The notes below the pieces were generated by a model that worked only from the letters and a program-made list of their open reading frames with translations, had not been told where the DNA came from and did not search any database. A DNA stretch of 64,000 nucleotides from Octopus vulgaris (taxonomy: Eukaryota): assembly GCA_951406725.2 (NCBI GenBank), contig OX597824.1, forward strand, positions 47,554,001 through 47,618,000, given 5' to 3'. Positions within the stretch are counted from its first letter, which is position 1, and each line of letters starts with the position of its first letter. The position numbers were made by a program, and so were the translations under genes. Of the stretch, positions 3,588-55,478 are shown piece after piece.

Positions 3588-6545
3588 TGTGTGTGTGTGT
3601 GAGAGGGAGAGAGGGGGGGATCTTGTGTTGTGTGATAATGATTCAGTTGTTCAATCAACTGAATTATCTACTCCTGAACTAACATATAAGTGACTAAGCA
3701 TTCTCTAGATGCATGCATCCTTAAGATAAATCTAAGGCAGAGTCGGCACCATACAGTGTTTGTGATAAGGCCGTACCTTTTGAATTACAGGTACAATCCA
3801 TTTGACAGGCTACTATGCAGTTCCTGTTTACTCAAGTTCACTCATGAGATATAGGTCAACCCAAGGTTAGAGAAAATGGTGTTTGTCCATGATTCCATGT
3901 AAAGGGGACAGCAAACCTAGGATATAATGGTTACGAAGTTAACTTCTTAAACATTTGGCCACATAATGTTATAACGGAGAATCTTGGGTTGAGTTTTATT
4001 ATTGCACATGGTTTTGTATTTCAATAATTCTACTAAGAAAAGCATAAATATCACATAATTTGCTTCTCGTGTAAACTGAAATCTTGTGCATATGTATGTA
4101 TTATTGGTCTAAGTAGATGAATGCAGTTGGTTTTATCCATATATTTAATTCAAAAGCTTATTTCTTTTATGACAAATCATTTTCTATAATAAATACTGTT
4201 GAAATATAAATTCTAATCACATGATAAAAGTCTTTGTAAATTTACTCCAGTAAATATTGGAAATTTAATACTGTATTTGATACTAATAATGACATTGATA
4301 ACAATAATCAATAATAAAATGTAGTATTTTATCAATAAATATCAATATTAACTTAATCCCCCCGCCCCACAAAAAAATGCTCACTCAACAGGTATTTTAT
4401 TTTTAATTCTTTTCAGTCTTAAAGACAAAGAAAGAATAAGAAATCAATTTATGATTATATTTGTGAAAATAAGCATAACAATTTCCCATGCATTTATTCA
4501 TTTCTTAGATTTGAAAAAATAGCAAGTCATAAAGACAGGAAAATAGAAACAGAACAAAATTTGTTGCAAGGTAATATAGAACCAAATAACTCAAGAAAAC
4601 AGTATCAAGCTTTTAAGTATGTAGCAAGAGTAATTCCATTTGAGTGCAGTGCAGGGACAGAAAACCAAAGGAAGTCATGTTGCACATCTTCACGCACGCA
4701 TGCATACACACATGCGTGCGTGCACACACACACACATGAAGAAATAGGAAAGAAAGAGAGGGAAACATATAAAAAGTTACAGCTACTCTCATAAAAACTA
4801 GTATGAAAATAAAATAGCAACAAATGTTTGTGAGAAGCTAGGTAGCTTAACATTATATTTGACCAATGATTTTATCTTTAATGCATGCATGAAACATAAT
4901 CTTTAATAAGACAGAAACAAACAAAAAAATAATGACATTGAAAAAAATATCTTATATTGCCATGTTTTTTACTAATGTGTTTATCTTGCTTATTTCCTTG
5001 TGTCTCAGTTAAAGGCAATGCTGTTTTTCATCAGTGAGCTTCATGAATATTATTTATGAAACAGGTTTTGTTCAGTTATGCCTTGTATGTGAAATAAATA
5101 TCTGAAATGTTTTTTATTCTCTCTTGTGGCTATTTCTTTTGAGGATAGTTTTTAATTGCATGCTCAGTGATTTGCCTTGATAAGTTCTAATTTTACCCAT
5201 ACAGTGGATCTGACATATGTAACCAAAACTTCACTTAACTGAAATTATTCATGCAATCAATAAACACTGTTTCTGGGGGGTTTTAAAATCTAAAAGCAGG
5301 GACAGTAACTCCAGTGATATCAGAAAATAAAGATGATGTAGATGCTTACATATTTCTAGGCAAAGTTATTGTCACAAGAGATTGGTTTTTCTTTTGATTT
5401 GCATGAGAATATTTTAAAATTACTCTTATTGTTATTTGGATACTATCAGAAACTATTTTGTATGAATATCTTCATCTTATATCATTTAGTTATTTGAGTT
5501 TGTATATTGCTCACCTTAGTTAGTGATGCACATGTAAATACATCTGGCCAAGATTGAATACCTTGACACAAAGCAGAGAAATGGTTTTTGACATTCATGC
5601 ACAGTCTGTAATTATCTCCTGGCTAAGTCAAAGAAGGAGTCTTTATGTGGTCACTAGATCTGCTAGAAATTGTAACCAAATATTCTTTATTTCACACATC
5701 TTACCATCTTAAAAATAGATATATTGATAATGTAATTTGGGATACACAATGTTTGAAAAGATATGCCTCTGATCATAGCTCTACTCAGTCAGGGTTGACC
5801 CAGGCTAAATGACAACAGCCATCAGCTAATAACATTTTCGTGTAGTTTCCCATGGGTAAGTTCTGGATATATGTAATATTGATGAAGCTTAATGTTTCTC
5901 TTTTAGACAAGAGATTCTAGGTCCCTTATGTCAGTATTATATATTCATTACTGCCCTATGCAGTCCTGCTGGTTACCATCCAAGAAATTTATTTTGACTT
6001 TCTTTGGTTATGGTAAATTTTTTACACATTGTTTCTACTATCTATTTAATTTTGGCCTTAATGTTTTATCTTTATTCTCAGATCTCTCAACACAGCCAGC
6101 CTTTGTTTCTATCTAGTCATTTCTTTAACATAAGAAAATAGATTTCTTTAGATGTTTCTAAACTAAATATAAACCTTGCCTTAATTTCTGAGATGGTTCT
6201 TTTGTAAATCTTACATAAGTTATTTTGTAACAATTTCCTATTTGGATAATTATTTCTCCTTTCATTAATATCAAATCCTAATGTTGGCTACTCAATTATA
6301 TCATTTTTTTTTTAATGTTTAGAGAGAATAATGAATCATCTTGCAAACAATATTATATTTTCTATTCTTTTACTGATACTGAAACTAGTAATTTATCAGG
6401 TCAGCCAGTATGTTTTTCTAATTACTTTCTAGTTAGTATTGAGGAGTTCTCAGAACTAATTTAATTTATTGGCAGTATACTTATTTTTTTCATTTTTAAT
6501 ATATCGTTTTTACTGGCTTTTCTTAATTCCTATGTGTGTGTATCT

Positions 6546-38877: not shown

Positions 38878-39087
38878 CTGTACATCCAGCCATTTAGAAA
38901 GTTGTTTAGCTTTTTCTTGTCGTAACATATTACCAGCATTTGTAACAAATAATGCAGGTACTATAAACCTGCCATATTCATCAGTCAAAAGTTTGAACGC
39001 CTCTTTTGCTGAAGGAAGGAGGTTTTTACCTCTTACAATTACTCCATCAATATCGAACAGAAACCCAAAGCAGGGTTTGTTGGCACT
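38878..39087 (-). CDS. HDHD5: HDHD5/CECR5-like HAD hydrolase, internal coding exon with HAD motif I (SANKPCFGFLFDIDGVIVRGK...FVTNAG...WLDVQ)
   Basis: 210 nt, phase 0-0. Acceptor ttttcacag and donor gtaatt. The FDIDGV and FVTNAG motifs are typical of HAD-IIA/CECR5 proteins. Confidence 0.93.
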
Positions 39088-40473: not shown

Positions 40474-41525
40474 TAGCAGCCCTCACAATTTGTTTCACTG
40501 TCCTGTTTTGTTACCGACTTTGACCCTCCGCAAAATCCCAAATTTTACTTTGGTTTGCTGGAGCATCTGTTTTCTCAAAGGCACATATTGTCGTGAATTG
40601 CTCGAAATGTGGAGTAGATAAACAGCCGACAACTGATGAAGAGTCATTCTTTATGTTACTTGTCTTGTTTTCCATTTGTTTCTCTTGCTGTTTGCAAAAA
40701 AAACGTTTGTCTTCATATTTCATGTTGTTTTTCGTATTTCATGTTGTTTACATTTTGTGATGTCCTGCACTCATATTTGCATATATATATACTTATATAT
40801 GTCAGTATGTACATATATGTATGCATATATGCCTATATATATATATATATATTTTATTTATATTATTATATGATTGAACGCCACACATCTACATCTATTT
40901 CCAAGTAAGTTTATCTTCATAATTTGATGCGACTCTATACTGTTCTCTCTCTCTCTCCTTTCGTTTTTCTCTTTCTTCCTTTCTCTAATTCTTTTTTCTC
41001 CCCTTCACCATTTCTATCTGTCCCTCTCTCTCCCTTCCTCCTTTACTCTCTCATTGCTCACACGTGACCATCATCCATGAACACGTGTTCATTTTACTTT
41101 TCTTTCAGTCTGTTGCACAGACCAGACGTATTCTTGTCTGTCTCCTCTCCTATCTTTTCTCCTGTCAAAGAATGTTCCTCAGCGTTTGCCACCTTATCCC
41201 ATCTGGCTTAGCAACCCTCACTATTTGTTTCACTGTCCTGTTTTTGTTACCAACTTTGACCCTCCACAAAATCCCAAATTTTATTTTGGTTTGCGGGAGC
41301 AACTGTTTTCTCAAAGGCACATATTGTCATGAATTGCTTGAAATGTGGAGTAGATAAACAGCAGACAACTGATGAAAAGTTGTTCTTTATGTTACTTGTC
41401 TTGTTTTCCATTTGTTTATTTCGTTGTTCACAAAAAAAGTTTGTTTTCATATTTCATGTTGTTTTTCGGATTTCAGATTTCCTGTTTTCGTATTTCATTT
41501 TGCTTATGTTTTGTGATGTCCTGTA
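40474..41525 (+). repeat. Pair of ~300-bp diverged direct repeats (40474-40770 and 41209-41525) with a ~440-bp CT-rich spacer, possibly a Penelope-like pseudo-LTR relic
   Basis: Both copies read agca.ccctcac.atttgtttcactgtcctg...aaaatcccaaatttt...acaactgatgaa...ttttgtgatgtcctg. Confidence 0.7.
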
Positions 41526-41579
<54 letters not shown>

Positions 41580-41580
<1 letters not shown>

Positions 41581-42387
41581 CCTTAAAAATGTTTTAGCCT
41601 GAAGGCCGCGGCCATGCTGGGGCACCACCGCTGAATGAGCTACACTAATTTGTGAATCCACCTCTGATACGTGGCACTTGATCAACAAGGGAGTTCGATG
41701 CTGCTGCCCGCATCCGCGTCTCCTGTCGTGAGGTAGGTTCATCTGGGACTCCCAACAAGAAGAGATCCAGTTTAGTTTTAAAGAAACCCACATCCACACC
41801 ATGTAAGTCTCTCAGGCATTTAGGGAGGATGTTAAAGAGCTGTGGTCCTCTGAAACCCAAGCTGTTGCAGTATCTGGACCTGTATTTTGATGGTGATGTT
41901 GGAATCCTTGGCACCATGCAGTGGCGCCCGTTCTGCGGTTGGAGTAACTTTGAATGCCAAAGTTTGGGACAAGACCCTCCAGGATTTTCCAGATGTATAT
42001 CACCGCATATCTCTCCCGCCTCCGCTCTAGGGAGAAGAGGTTTAATACCTTCAGTCTTTCCCAGTAGCTGATATTTTGCATTGAGACAATTTTCTTTGTG
42101 TAGCTTCTCTGAATTGCTTCGAGTTCTGCTGTTAGTTTTATATTGTGTGGTGACCAAAGTTGGGAGCAGTAGTCCAAGCGGCTGAGGACGAATGTTTTCC
42201 ATAGGACCATCAGTGTCTCCTTCTCTCTTGTTCTGAAAGTTCGGAGAATCCATCCAGCTAGCCGTCTGCATTTTATCACCAGATTAGCAATATGCACTTG
42301 GAAAGATGCATCATTGCTCATGTCAATGCCCAGGTCACGCACTGATTTTGACTCAGGGATTGCAATTCTTCCTGGGCCAGTGTATCC
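41580..42387 (-). mobile_element. 5'-truncated CR1-group LINE (RT C-terminus and 3' UTR), related to the copy at 50812-54703
   Basis: RDLGIDMSND...[10 protein letters not shown]...[24 protein letters not shown], then a frameshift, then [13 protein letters not shown]...VPDEP...RAAASNSL. Confidence 0.9.
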
Positions 42388-42392
42388 AGTGT

Positions 42393-42483
42393 CCTACGCT
42401 GATGAGAAAAGAAGTTGGGTAAGATATAATTATCTAATTCTTATGCTTTCCTAAAACTTAATTTCGAAAAGTACGTCCGTAGG
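42393..42483 (+). ncRNA. Type-I hammerhead ribozyme motif, copy 1 (stem III variant GAAAAGTACGTC)
   Basis: cctacg-CTGATGA-[stem II]-GAAA-agtacg-TC-cgtagg. Stem I is 6 bp. Stem III is weakened by a C>A change. Confidence 0.65.
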
Positions 42484-42975
42484 TGACTTAAAATTGTATG
42501 ATAGATTGCCGTCATTTCATTCTCTCTTACCTGTCTGTGTTTGCCTTTCAAGTGCTGTGTTTTTACTGAGATCTCCCTTTTAGTAGAAAGAATAGCTATA
42601 ACTCTTTGACTGCTATTTCTAAATTCGATGTGTGGTGAGGCAATTCGTTGCTAAACCTTTAATTGCTTAGTATTACTTAAACTTTCCTCGAATGAGGCTT
42701 TTACATGCCGAAATCTACTTGGTGTAATTAATGATTATTCCAAATTAATTAATTTCACCCTATATTGTTACTGATAACCATATTTCATCCCAGTAAATGA
42801 CCACAGCATCTTGTCTTGGCTACACGCTGGTGGGAAGGGGTTGGTGACACAAACTTTCATTCACACTTTGAATTTGGTGATACTGGTAACGGCTTTAGCT
42901 CGCTCTGATACTGAGTTGAGATGATGCCTTCTAGTATCTCGAAATTTAATATACAATTATTCATAATTGTAGTGT

Positions 42976-43066
42976 CCTACGCTGATGAGAAAAGAAGTTG
43001 GGTAAGATATAATTATCTAATTCTTATGCTTTCCTAAAACTTAATTTCGAAACGTCCGTCCGTAGG
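42976..43066 (+). ncRNA. Type-I minimal hammerhead ribozyme motif, copy 2 (predicted GUC cleavage after 43060)
   Basis: cctacg-CTGATGA-gaaa..aagtt..taaga/tctta..aactt..tttc-GAAA-cgtccg-TC-cgtagg. The core consensus is complete and stems I, II and III can all pair. Confidence 0.8.
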
Positions 43067-43256
43067 TGACTTAAAATTGTATGATAGATTGCCGTCATTT
43101 CATTCTCTCTTACCTGTCTGTGTTTGCCTTTCAAGTGCTGTGTTTTTACTGAGATCTCCCTTTTAGTAGAAAGAATAGCTATAACTCTTTGACTGCTATT
43201 TCTAAATTCGGTGTGTGGTGAGGCAATTCGTTGCTAAACCCTTAATTGCTTAGTAT

Positions 43257-44850
<1,594 letters not shown>

Positions 44851-45067
44851 TGGGACAGCTTGCTGAGTGCCACAGACCGAGTCTGTGGATGGTGCAAAGT
44901 CCCTTCCAGACCTAGAATTACGTGCTGGTGGAATAGTGCAGTAGATAAAGCCATCTGTGAAAAGAGACGGGCCTGGAAAGCCTGGAAGGATGGAGGCAGC
45001 AGGGAACTGTACCAGATAGCCAAAAGGGAGGCTGGGCGGCAGGTATACATAGCCAAAGATGTAGCAG
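44851..45067 (+). mobile_element. Duplicated 5' piece of the RTE LINE at 47682
   Basis: Matches 47682-47898 apart from one substitution. Confidence 0.9.
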
Positions 45068-45126
45068 GTCACGCACTGATTTTGACTCAGGGATTGCAAT
45101 TCTTCCTGGGCCAGTGTATCCAGTGT

Positions 45127-45217
45127 CCTACGCTGATGAGAAAAGAAGTTGGGTAAGATATAATTATCTAATTCTTATGCTTTCCTAAAACTTAATTTCG
45201 AAAAGTACGTCCGTAGG
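45127..45217 (+). ncRNA. Hammerhead ribozyme motif, copy 3 (same sequence as copy 1)
   Basis: Same sequence as 42393-42483. Confidence 0.65.
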
Positions 45218-45709
45218 TGACTTAAAATTGTATGATAGATTGCCGTCATTTCATTCTCTCTTACCTGTCTGTGTTTGCCTTTCAAGTGCTGTGTTTTTAC
45301 TGAGATCTCCCTTTTAGTAGAAAGAATAGCTATAACTCTTTGACTGCTATTTCTAAATTCGATGTGTGGTGAGGCAATTCGTTGCTAAACCTTTAATTGC
45401 TTAGTATTACTTAAACTTTCCTCGAATGAGGCTTTTACATGCCGAAATCTACTTGGTGTAATTAATGATTATTCCAAATTAATTAATTTCACCCTATATT
45501 GTTACTGATAACCATATTTCATCCCAGTAAATGACCACAGCATCTTGTCTTGGCTACACGCTGGTGGGAAGGGGTTGGTGACACAAACTTTCATTCACAC
45601 TTTGAATTTGGTGATACTGGTAACGGCTTTAGCTCGCTCTGATACTGAGTTGAGATGATGCCTTCTAGTATCTCGAAATTTAATATACAATTATTCATAA
45701 TTGTAGTGT

Positions 45710-45800
45710 CCTACGCTGATGAGAAAAGAAGTTGGGTAAGATATAATTATCTAATTCTTATGCTTTCCTAAAACTTAATTTCGAAACGTCCGTCCGTAGG
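45710..45800 (+). ncRNA. Hammerhead ribozyme motif, copy 4 (same sequence as copy 2)
   Basis: Same sequence as 42976-43066. Confidence 0.8.
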
Positions 45801-45990
45801 TGACTTAAAATTGTATGATAGATTGCCGTCATTTCATTCTCTCTTACCTGTCTGTGTTTGCCTTTCAAGTGCTGTGTTTTTACTGAGATCTCCCTTTTAG
45901 TAGAAAGAATAGCTATAACTCTTTGACTGCTATTTCTAAATTCGGTGTGTGGTGAGGCAATTCGTTGCTAAACCCTTAATTGCTTAGTAT

Positions 45991-50900: not shown

Positions 50901-53900
50901 TCATGGGGGCTTTCTAGCAACTGCTATTTGGTGCATGAGAGAGTTCGATGCAGCTGCCCTCATCTGCCCCTCCTGCCGTGAAGTTGGTTCATCTGGGACA
51001 CCAGACAGGAAGAGATCCAGCTTCATTTTAAAGACATCTGTATCCACCCCATGCAGGTCTCTCAGGTTCTTCGGGAGGATATTGAAGAGCTGTGGGCCTC
51101 GGAAGCCCAGGCTATCACAGAATCTTGTCCTACATCTTGATGGCAGGTTTGGAGTCCTAGGCACCACGCAGTGGCGCCCAGTTCTGGCATTTGTGTAACT
51201 CTCGATGCCAAAGTTCAGGACACTTCCCTCCAGGATCTTCCAGATGTATATTATGGCATATCTTTCCCGCCTACGCTCCAGGGAGTATAATTTTAATCTC
51301 TTGAGTCTTTCCCAGTAGCTTACATTCTGCATAGAGGCTATCTTCTTTGTGTAGCTTCGTTGGATCGCCTCAAGTTCTGTGATCAACTTGACACTGGATG
51401 GTGACCATAGCTGAGAGCAATAGTCAAAGTGGCTTAGGACAAGTGTCTTCCAGAGGACCATCATGGTTTCTTGTTCTCTTGTTCTAAAGGTTCTAAGAAT
51501 CCAGCCAGCCAGCCGTCTACATTTCACTGTCAGTTTAGCAACATGTACATGAAAGGTCGCGTCATCACTCATGTGAATACCCAGGTCACGCACTGATTGT
51601 GCCTCTGGGATTGCAATCCCTCCGGGTCCAGTGTATTCATTGGGTATTGCATTCAGTTTTGCATGCTGATAGTATAAAGCTTGAAACTTTCCAGCATTGA
51701 ACTGCATGCTATTCTTTTCAGCCCACTTGTATATTTCGTCCAGCTCACATTGCAGGTTTTTAGTGTCCTCAGGGTTCTGTATTGCCTGTGAAACTTTTGT
51801 ATCATCTGCATAACTTGTGATCGTGGATCTCTGCGTGGCTGAGGGCATGTCTGAGAGGGCCATTATGAACAGTAGTGGTCCCAAAACAGTGCCCTGTGGA
51901 ACACCACTCATTATTTGCGTGTTAATGGAAGTGGCCCCATTGGCTACTACCACCTGACTTCTATTCTTCAGAAAGTCGTGAAGCCATTCTCCTAGTTTTC
52001 CAACTATGCCAAGATCACGCAACCTGTGACATATCATTCCGTGATCGACTTTATCGAAGGCCTTTACGAAGTCGAGATATATGACTTCCACATTTGAGTG
52101 GTTGAGCAGTTGTTTCAGCACCCAGTCATAGTGCTGCAGGAGCTGAGTTAAGCAGCTTCTTCCTGGTCGGAAACCATGTTGGGTGTCAGGCAGCAAGTCA
52201 TTTTCTTCAAGGAAGGTGATTAGTTTCCTTCTGACTATTCGTTCCATGACCTTGCTGATGTGTGAGGTCAGAGAGATAGGTCTGTAGTTCTTTGCCTCCG
52301 CTCTGCTACCTCCTTTATGAATAGGGCATATTTTACCTTCCTTCAGTCCCCTTGGAAGTTTGCCAGCTGCAAGGAAGCTCTGAAAGAGGGACTGCAGTGG
52401 TCTTGCTAAGACTCTCTTACATACTTTTAGGAGGATTGCCGGGAATCCATCGGGGCCAGTAGCTGAGTCTATTTTCATTTCATCTATAGCCTTTATTACA
52501 TCGTCTTCCTTTATCTCGATGTAACTTATCGTCGCCGCCTCTGATTCTATATCTGCAGTGGTAAAGAAGTCAGTTGGATTGCTGATTTGGAAATGCCCAA
52601 GGGGTGGAGTGAAAACACTCTTGAATTGTTCATTCAGTATTTCACTTACCCTCATTGGTTTTCCTGTGAGTGTGCCATCCTTTTCAAGGAGTGGCCCTAT
52701 CCTACAGTGCACTGTAGCCGTTTCTTTGGCATACCTGTAGAAAGCTCTGGGGTTAGTTTTTATGTTGTCTATAGCCCAGGCTTCTTTGTCTGCTCTTTCC
52801 TTCTCATGGGAAAGTTGCAGACAATTTTCAATTTCCAACAGTTTTATTTTCAGGCGGGACTTTTCACTACTTTCAATTTGTTTGTTTAGGCGATTTGAAA
52901 TTTTTGTACGCCGTCTCATTAAAATTTTCCTCTCTCTGGGGATTTTGTTCTTGTGTACAGTGGCCTTTCTCTCTGGGACACATTTGTAGCATATGGCTTG
53001 CATTACAGACATGAATTGTTGAAGTATCATGTCGATGTCCGGCGAGGAGAGACATTCAGGCCAGTTTTGTTTGAGGATCTCTTTCTCAATTTGTTTCCAG
53101 TTTGCCTTATTGAAGTTCAAGCTGGAAAGATTCTGAGGGTTTCTTGTAGGCTGCATGTCCGTGCTCTCTTTTGGCCCGTACATGGTCAGCTCTACCATGT
53201 TGTGATCCGAGAGTAGTGTCGGTGTCACTTTCACATTATGGATGAGATCCATATTATTTGTGAAGCAGAGATCCAGTGTGTTACCTGCTCTGGTTGGTTG
53301 CAGTATTACTTGCTCCATGTACAGGGTGTTGGTGAGGTTCAGGAGGGACCTCGCCTGTCCACGTTCACATCTTGTCATTCCTGGGAGAGAAAGGCCCTCG
53401 GGCCATCTGACATTCGGTAGATTGAAGTCTCCCATGAGAAGTACACTTATGTGTTGTTCTAATGTGGTTAGAACTTCTTCTATTTTTAAAAGGCAGTCCT
53501 CGAACTTGCCCATATGACTTGGGGCATCTGGAGGGCGATATGTAGCACACACAACTACATCAAGTTGCCTTATGTGTACAATTAGTGTGTCACACACCGA
53601 GTTTGAGTATGACAAAAGGACCTGGGGTGTGAGGTCCCCACGGATGTACATAGCAACTCCTCCATGACTCCTTTCTTTCCTGTCGGTCCGTAGTACAACA
53701 TACTGTGGTATGTGTAATTCCGCATCTGCTATGTCCGGTTTCAGATGCGTTTCTGTGAGTGCTATGCATAAGGCTTGATTGCATGCGACAAAGTCTCTCA
53801 GGAACGGGACTTTTGTCCTGTTACTGTGTGTTAGTAAACCTCTGATGTTCAGTAGGAGCATCGAGGTGAGGTGTATGCTGTTGCCGGCGTTGTCCACCCT

Positions 53901-54005
53901 GGGTCCATCTGCTGTGGCGGTCTTGTGAACTGTGGGCAGTTCCATCTGCGAGCCTGAGCCTGATGGAGCCAGGTTAGCTGCTGTACAATCTTTTGTGCCA
54001 TGCAC
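50901..54005 (-). CDS. LINE ORF2: APE endonuclease + reverse transcriptase, 1034 codons uninterrupted (track start is GTG, first ATG at 53945)
   Basis: [32 protein letters not shown] and SDHN (APE). [49 protein letters not shown] and RDLG (RT). Confidence 0.93.
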
Positions 54006-54700
54006 AAAAAAGATTCCTGCTCAGCAGCTGCCCTTTCAACAACACGTTGGTGGTTTGTGGTACGCACCACATCTGCGTACCTCCGTTTTGGGGCAGGTGA
54101 TGCCTGGTCCATCCCATTTCCTTTCGGTGGTTGGTTTCTGTGGCAGGGTCCCGGATGTGCAAAGCGGCAGCCTGCACCTTCCTCTCCATGCCGGCAGGCA
54201 CCTTTCAGGTAGAACCTACATACCCGTGTGCGCTGCTTGTTTCCATCCTTTTTGGCATATGGACCGTTAGGTTTGCCTCTGTCCCTGGCTGCCTTGTCCC
54301 TTGGCTTTGTCTGAGTTTTAGCTTCAGTTTTTCCTCTTTTTTTGGCCTCTTCATCTCCATGTCCACGGCTTTTGGAGCCGGTAGGAGCATCCGTACCTGG
54401 GTTCACCTCCCGGGCAGGCCTATCGTTGGAGTTTTCTTCCTGGGCGTCCACCAGGTGGGGGTGACCCTCCTCATCTGCGCCCACGTCTCCATCCTTGCCA
54501 TCTTTACTTTGTTCGCGTTTTTCGCTGTTAAAAATGGCATCCAGTGTGTTTATGTGCGATCTGACAAGTGCGTATGAGCGTACGAACTCTTGCCTCTTCC
54601 GCTCTATTTGTGCTGATGTCCTTTTGAATCCTTTGTTCTTTAGTGCTGCCGCAATTATGTTACTTGGACTTTCTCCGTCAGCGCATTGCCATCCTCGCAG

Positions 54701-54703
<3 letters not shown>
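53849..54703 (-). CDS. LINE ORF1, 5'-truncated, with a trihelix/Myb-SANT-like segment and a CCCH zinc finger
   Basis: Non-repeat part of ORF 53849-55393: [28 protein letters not shown] and [22 protein letters not shown] (C-x7-C-x8-C-x3-H). Confidence 0.75.

Positions 54704-55478
<775 letters not shown>

Follow-up and report, generated by a model that had tools for sequence, protein, structure and literature searches.

The elements closest to the one analysed here are the metazoan non-LTR retrozymes and the Penelope-like elements (PLEs). Retrozymes of coral, mussel and axolotl are non-coding tandem repeats of low G+C content with one type I hammerhead ribozyme per unit, a short stem III with a palindromic loop and a self-paired monomer, and they co-occur with PLEs (PMC7229834; bioRxiv 10.64898/2026.07.22.740005). 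The palindrome of loop 3 allows two hammerheads to pair (PMC4209133). Published retrozyme units span 51-972 bp, with an average of 650 bp in ray-finned fish, and come from 35 species, with no mollusc in the accessible part of this account (bioRxiv 10.64898/2026.07.22.740005). In PLEs of the Neptune and Poseidon clades, a hammerhead lies upstream of two reverse transcriptase (RT) start sites, and partial tandems, inverted 5' arms, a tail on one arm and AT-rich or (TA)n targets have been described (PMC11167929, PMC8557442, PMC3846280, PMC4209133). Non-autonomous PLEs, e.g. MRC1 of Chlamydomonas, are non-coding, form pLTRs, are multicopy and head-to-tail, and are moved in trans, usually with the 3' sequence of an autonomous family (PMC8557442).

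Here, a stretch of 64,000 nucleotides from Octopus vulgaris (GCA_951406725.2, contig OX597824.1, positions 47,554,001 to 47,618,000 of the forward strand) was analysed, which is referred to as the window. We conclude that an insertion at window positions 42388..43256 represents a non-LTR retrozyme family that is new, i.e. a non-autonomous parasite of PLEs, for which cleavage is predicted from the sequence and circles are proposed. As in known retrozymes, every unit has a type I core, at least two hammerhead units are consecutive, the unit is non-coding with low G+C content, and the monomer is predicted to be self-paired. A frame with RT and GIY-YIG domains between pLTRs, as in an autonomous PLE, is absent from the unit and from its flanks in the 305 loci analysed. 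Two internal RT start sites, a tail on one end, 5' truncation, inversion, partial tandems and a TA target are the features of a non-autonomous element mobilized by PLEs. A plant-type LTR retrozyme, with a type III hammerhead in true LTRs, does not fit the type I topology and the variable repeat length.

Unlike the metazoan retrozymes described in the accessible literature, the family has a helix II region of 60 nt which is missed by Rfam, is only a candidate for circle formation, and consists mostly not of arrays but of insertions into (TA)n that are short, truncated at the 5' end or inverted. Furthermore, the two-site priming of PLEs can be read in its copies, which was not met in the retrozyme literature examined. 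In contrast to Neptune and Poseidon PLEs, it lacks an ORF, and its tail from site A to site B (see below) comprises ~100 nt, compared to 30-40 nt in the published elements. It differs from the Chlamydomonas non-autonomous elements in that no partner was found, and from most Chlamys elements, which are without canonical hammerheads (PMC8557442), in that it retains its hammerhead. Its unit length of 583 nt, which the original prediction had taken to exceed that of known animal retrozymes, lies inside the published range. Mobilization of animal retrozymes by PLEs has so far been argued from co-occurrence and pLTR phylogeny (PMC7229834; bioRxiv 10.64898/2026.07.22.740005), whereas here the insertion anatomy of the non-coding family itself bears the PLE signature. 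Thus, our analysis adds this insertion-level signature in a retrozyme, a rule by which the two ends of inverted insertions use sites A and B, a long tail, a long helix II and a conserved structural module. In line with the proposal that the family is undescribed, no account of it or of any cephalopod retrozyme was found in the literature searched, which included few subscription journals. The word "ribozyme" does not occur in the accessible main text of an octopus repeat annotation, the repeat library of which may contain the family (PMC13282606).

The insertion in the window and its hammerhead motifs

The insertion on the plus strand comprises 1.49 units, i.e. unit positions 1-583 plus 1-286. 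It is truncated at its 5' end, and its 3' end at 43256 coincides with priming site A. The two 286-bp direct repeats spaced by 583 bp that had been noticed before are present at 42388-42673 and 42971-43256 and differ at 4 of 286 positions (98.6% identity). They had been interpreted as delimiting, LTR-like ends starting at the ribozyme; instead, they are where a partial tandem of 1.5 units overlaps itself, between a 5' break at a random point and an internal priming site at a fixed one. The exact start of the element at AGT is likewise a chance truncation without a special role, being one of many scattered 5' truncation points in the family. As stated in the original prediction, the unit is without an ORF: the longest stop-to-stop frame over unit and junction encodes 69 aa, the longest on the plus strand 48 aa. 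Its G+C content is 36%. The target of the insertion is a (TA)n microsatellite at 43257..44851, to which no strand is assigned.

A second, identical copy of the element is located at 45122..45990 on the plus strand. It is part of a tandem duplication in which 42331-45064 is repeated from 45065 to ~47895, with CAG microhomology at the join. Besides the element and its flank, the duplicated segment takes in the (TA)n tract and 213 bp of a LINE-like repeat. Both element copies agree at 926 of 926 bases, including 57 bp of flank, and one mismatch is seen within the 213 bp. This 2.7-kb duplication could be a real recent event or an assembly artefact. For the insertion itself an assembly artefact is unlikely, since its 5' junction was found in a contig of sequencing run X5.

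As context, an internal exon of an HDHD5-like gene (Hydrolase_6) with its splice acceptor lies at 38878..39087 on the minus strand. The element, described before as antisense to HDHD5, is indeed opposite in sense to this exon. The element may lie in an intron or upstream of the gene, exon 1 of which was not located, and no effect of the element on the host gene is indicated. Elsewhere in the window, the endonuclease and RT domains of a LINE are encoded by a 1,039-aa frame without interruption (50901-54020, minus strand), which is preceded by a 529-aa frame (53849-55438); in addition, there is a direct repeat pair unrelated to the element (40474-40870 and 41209-41577, ~735 bp apart, 91% identity over 269 bp).

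Type I hammerheads were assigned to 42388..42488 and 42971..43071 on the plus strand, with predicted cleavage after 42477 and 43060, respectively. The corresponding predicted monomer of 583 nt (42478..43060, plus strand) was used to compute a circular fold. Both motifs contain stem I CCTACG/CGTAGG, CTGATGA, the 60-nt helix II region, GAAA, a short stem III and the GUC triplet; in hammerhead 1, stem I corresponds to 42393-42398/42478-42483, the core to 42399-42405, helix II to 42406-42465 and GAAA to 42466-42469. Thus, all core letters of the complete hammerhead claimed for the head of each repeat are present, but the two cores are not identical. An A at 42470 breaks the C-G pair of stem III in hammerhead 1 and was seen in 0 of 113 other copies, while a C at 43056 breaks the loop 3 palindrome in hammerhead 2 and recurred in 1 of 156, many of the compared loci having been chosen on an intact motif. 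The predicted 8-nt loop duplex is weakened by these mutations from -9.8 to -2.4 kcal/mol. With a mutation in each of its two stem IIIs, this copy of the element is probably impaired and a poor candidate source of 583-nt monomers, contrary to the release suggested originally.

The Rfam and folding checks that had been recommended gave no support: two Rfam searches of the sequence returned microsatellite noise or chance matches without a hammerhead, probably because of the long helix II, and in the minimum-energy fold stem I forms while the three-way junction does not (z -1.9). The assignment rests on the core letters and covariation. For the latter, 26 hand-picked rows were aligned (21 of 102 distinct segments and 5 of an older lineage). 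In the hammerhead helices 94% of 624 cells are paired, compared to 21-46% in slid alignments as a control, and 8 of 24 pairs are changed on both sides, although the rows are related to each other and represent few independent events. Between lineages, stem I CCTACG/CGTAGG is replaced by CCCATG/CATGGG and loop 3 GTAC by GCGC, with retention of the palindrome. Stem covariation among genomic copies, on which the original prediction had made the motif depend, is therefore present between lineages. Overall, the family motif is a real type I hammerhead with predicted self-cleavage, and its sequence pattern indicates that the ribozyme is under selection. As a caution regarding cleavage, 8 of 9 predicted retrozyme dimers of Xenopus failed to cleave in vitro (bioRxiv 10.64898/2026.07.22.740005). 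A ~90%-identical subfamily, which includes several of the longer arrays seen, has the core variant CCGAUGA (U4 to C) in the hammerheads of loci L052-L057, L061 and L064.

The family, its insertions and a conserved module

A genome search with the 583-bp unit yielded 2,677 candidates; the 40 that were scored contain full units at 92-100% identity. The core 3' hammerhead motif has at least 1,102 exact genomic matches compared to 0 for the reversed control, which argues against a chance family. A motif near site A gave 1,500 matches (4 in the control) and a pattern of the module common to the lineages 4,763 (0 in the control). Arrayed in tandem, ~10 units were seen at C8 and 5-7 on C1. The copy-number search proposed earlier thus revealed a dispersed high-copy family with tandem arrays.

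The family is part of a clade of hammerhead repeats with 545-600-bp units, the lineages of which diverge to 56% identity. One sister lineage with a ~590-bp unit shows 69% identity to the window family and has 579 candidates. Another one, with units of 545-563 bp and 55-57% identity, accounts for most of the 100 matches listed of 309 (control 1). At L283, L285 and L282 (C1:180.56 Mb, C1:71.60 Mb and C5:54.20 Mb), this sister family agrees with the window family in the palindromic loop 3 and in both priming sites but has another stem I and a helix II of 30 nt; its arrays contain 12 hammerheads. In every lineage read, a non-coding unit rejoins itself end to start. Some arrays have a higher-order structure: L051 (1298-7012) alternates two unit types with hybrids, and L052 (1568-5256) has a period of 3, alongside common private variants. 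Array homogeneity was dropped as proof of rolling-circle copying, as such alternating and period-3 patterns can be explained by local duplication.

The anatomy of the insertions was analysed in 120 loci with 185 arms, whose 3' ends were classified as site A (bin 255-300) or site B (bin 360-400). A total of 106 arms end at site A (mostly 282-292) and 68 at site B (mostly 379-396), with 11 ending elsewhere, and the 3' flank is TA-like in 167 of the 185. As defined by these arm ends, site A (unit 282-292, with 286 used in 65/185 arms) corresponds to 42669..42679 and site B (unit 379-396), ~100 nt downstream, to 42766..42783 of the plus strand of the window. Target-site duplications are unreadable in (TA)n, and the apparent TA microhomology at both sites is perhaps partly due to alignment running into the repeat. 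The copies show scattered 5' truncations, inversions, partial tandems and (TA)n joined to their 3' ends, and the length of their repeats depends on where truncation and priming took place.

Among 56 head-to-head pairs, A is combined with B in 46 and with A in 1, there is no pair of B with B, and in 9 one of the ends is unclassified; hence, A+B is found in 46/47 classifiable pairs (p 3e-13 against 0.5). Non-inverted insertions end at A in 52 cases and at B in 17. A second set of 93 loci, mostly of sister lineages, contained 49 pairs (45 A+B, 0 A+A, 0 B+B, 4 unclassified); many of these loci had been selected for reaching past A, so that only the lack of B+B is informative, and about three locus pairs look duplicate. 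In both sets together, 91/92 classifiable pairs are A+B. This near-strict rule limits the ways in which PLE enzymes can join the two ends. A tail delimited by two internal RT start sites is a PLE mechanism seen in vitro, where no start-site difference between the strands was observed (PMC11167929), and a tail on one inverted arm has been reported for PLEs (PMC3846280, PMC8557442). Both features are specific to PLEs. Fixed internal ends, (TA)n, 5' truncation and inversion are the footprint of PLEs. The family is therefore very probably a non-autonomous hammerhead element mobilized by PLEs, whatever the form of its template, and these hallmarks support the mobilization in trans suggested in the original prediction.

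Folded as a circle, the 583-nt monomer has a predicted free energy of -147 kcal/mol (z -4.6 compared to 40 shuffles) with 62% of its nucleotides paired. In six helices outside the ribozyme, 96% of 546 cells pair over 15 rows, compared to 33-49% when slid, the structure having been derived from the same 15 rows that were used to score it. Double-changed cells number 15 in these helices and 6.9 in shuffles, while pairs with double changes in P1-P5 (6/41) are equalled in 168/500 shuffles and are thus not above chance. Four of the six helices flank the two priming sites and form the module P1-P4 (42591..42759, plus strand), which is common to lineages down to 56% identity. Helix P5 (42871..42946, plus strand) shows compensatory changes between lineages. 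P1-P4 might be a docking signal for the PLE reverse transcriptase.

The template and a proposed route of mobilization

On balance we lean towards reading the window stretch as a 1.5-unit copy of a non-coding family that uses PLE enzymes in trans and most likely a circular RNA template. In the proposed route, tandem units would be transcribed, and two hammerheads are predicted to pair via the palindromic loop 3, which is conserved, and to excise monomers. If so, the monomers would somewhat more probably than not be ligated to ~583-nt circles, by analogy with the coral, mussel and axolotl retrozymes. A PLE protein with RT and GIY-YIG domains would then bind P1-P4 and cut (TA)n DNA, the target observed in the insertions. 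Reverse transcription would be primed inside the RNA at site A or B, where the arms are seen to end. Priming of one DNA end at A and of the other at B would give the head-to-head pattern observed, and RT crossing the ribozyme junction would give partial tandems such as the window copy. Some long arrays may subsequently enlarge by local duplication.

Priming occurs 200-300 nt downstream of the cleavage site, so that on a cleaved linear monomer the cDNA would end at unit position 91. Stops at this site were counted in 80 arms from 61 C1 loci with the site-A motif; four C1 loci of the first search, each of which spans the site, did not enter the count. Position 100 is reached by 45 arms, 43 of which pass the cleavage site, and the 2/45 arms that stop at 81-100 correspond to 4% per 20 nt, compared to a background of 65/767 (8.5%). 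Since there is no stall at the cleavage site, the template would be either a ligated circle or uncleaved RNA, between which the genomic data do not discriminate. The circle is modestly favoured because the dimer palindrome was kept over deep divergence in a non-coding element and because related elements make circles (PMC7229834).

In the main alternative, tandem copies would be transcribed into a linear multimer that serves as template without being cleaved, with a hammerhead that only trims transcripts or acts late and no circle required for insertion. We regard this as a serious but clearly less probable explanation. In vitro, where a single PLE was tested, the template was predominantly and preferentially unprocessed RNA, and ribozyme mutants were still inserted (PMC11167929), and the smooth passage across the cleavage site fits a linear multimer as well. 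So do the mixed units in the arrays L051 and L052, which are unlike the prediction for a single circle and would there need later local duplication or mixed templates. Most copies are moreover short; two cleavage sites are spanned in only 3/80 arms, so that the layout in the window is a minority one. On the other hand, about one unit would be lost per generation from a linear multimer unless arrays regrow, and the dimer palindrome is retained across lineages that are only 56-69% identical. Copying of one terminal unit of a mixed multimer by both inverted arms looked promising in three arrays, but was null over 30 comparisons (23 vs 29 sites, p 0.49; 8 vs 9 comparisons, 13 ties), which also speaks against this template. 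Cleaved linear monomers, at whose 5' end RT would make a precise jump to the 3' end of another monomer or of the same one, would account for partial tandems and for selection on cleavage without a ligase, and jumps between molecules would match the mixed array units. This explanation is improbable, as it predicts a surplus of 5' ends at unit position 91, where stops are below background.

The short, young, high-copy unit with its defined module offers a compact substrate for the question of circle versus uncleaved linear RNA. More speculatively, the circular template could belong to an old, independently evolving clade of circular RNA parasites of ~550-600 nt, whose several lineages diverge to 56% identity and which have no homologous autonomous element left. 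These would have captured PLE enzymes via a four-helix docking structure and would insert by a rolling-circle mode of reverse transcription in which each of the two cut DNA ends must be primed at a different one of two RNA sites, spaced by 100 nt. We consider this wider scenario tentative; if it is true, thousands of natural insertions record an asymmetric, two-ended PLE mechanism with circles as template.

Contigs of 4/24 listed sequencing runs (three guessed to be RNA, one larger and of unrecorded kind; none on record as RNA) all cover the unit, and those of one run join it end to start, as tandem DNA also would. A possible intron directly after the hammerhead, seen by eye, had no skipping joint in the contigs of these four runs. 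Record 30 of run X5 is a 1,330-nt contig with a depth of ~109 in which unit positions 233-522 are followed by unrelated sequence, possibly an element copy inside a host transcript. Runs X11, X16 and X17, labelled as three other organisms, contain 23-58% of the words of the element, which suggests that the family is present in relatives.

Search for a coding PLE partner

The genome contains 6,136 GIY-YIG candidates. Of 150 that were scored, 148 are matches, 16 of them in open frames of 781 aa, and the one 781-aa frame checked has RT and GIY-YIG domains. Copies of this family run into (TA)n at either of two positions with a spacing of 35 nt, the counterpart of the ~100-nt tail described above. 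Thus, active TA-targeting PLEs exist in the genome. By its cysteine linker, the 781-aa family appears to be of the Neptune type (PMC8557442). The 781-aa PLE is a plausible enzyme donor for the 583-bp family, with which it has no sequence in common; its hammerhead-like core is a variant, in contrast to the canonical core of the 583-bp family, which shares no sequence with any PLE sampled. With 150/6,136 candidates scored, module or unit sequence was found in 0 of 40 PLE loci by blastn and in 0/37 PLE-only loci by profile.

Altogether 305 loci were analysed, of which 253 contain the module, 48 PLE protein sequence and 11 both. None of the 305 has a coding PLE continuous with the unit or in pLTR geometry, nor was a partner found at 16 single-hammerhead loci with another helix II and 20 loci with a diverged module. 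In 10 of the 11 loci with both (counting one duplicate), module and PLE sequence are kept apart by a TA tract or by unrelated DNA. At the remaining one, L118 (about 1300-1320), the site A end abuts, across only a few TA bases, a same-sense PLE which is 5'-truncated at residue 325 and has 65% identity to the 781-aa protein. L030, L084, L038, L118 and L234 were rejected as links between element and PLE, being separate neighbours mostly across TA tracts; the sequence after the L030 hammerhead appears to resemble a mariner C-terminus. Five further loci have same-sense PLE fragments within 1 kb past the TA tract.

The adjacency check named in the original prediction, i.e. whether all copies are pLTRs of a coding Penelope element, thus found no such geometry in the loci sampled. 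That the copies are truncated pLTRs of a coding Penelope element outside the sample is very unlikely. Room for it is left by the sampling, with 150/6,136 GIY-YIG candidates scored and a few hundred of several thousand loci read, but at least three lineages have arrays, of up to ~10-12 units, in which the unit rejoins itself without an ORF, and the single abutting PLE at L118 is itself already truncated. Least probable of all and largely refuted is a satellite with a relic ribozyme spread only by DNA recombination, which would match the DNA-level copying seen in higher-order array repeats and in the local duplication of the window, whereas recombination does not yield fixed internal 3' ends, TA targets, 5' truncation, inversions or RNA covariation.

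Hammerhead-like motifs were also seen outside the clade. In the 781-aa PLE (L071, 1745-4087 and about 5060-5170; L040; L044), CUGAUGA is replaced by UUGAUAA, a variant core kept in diverged relatives, and another PLE family (L082) has the core CCGAAGA. Lone hammerhead-like motifs unrelated to the clade, with stems of their own and a palindromic or near-palindromic loop 3, are present in L267, L268, L271, L273 and L280 (about 4500-4620) and are probably relics of other PLE families.
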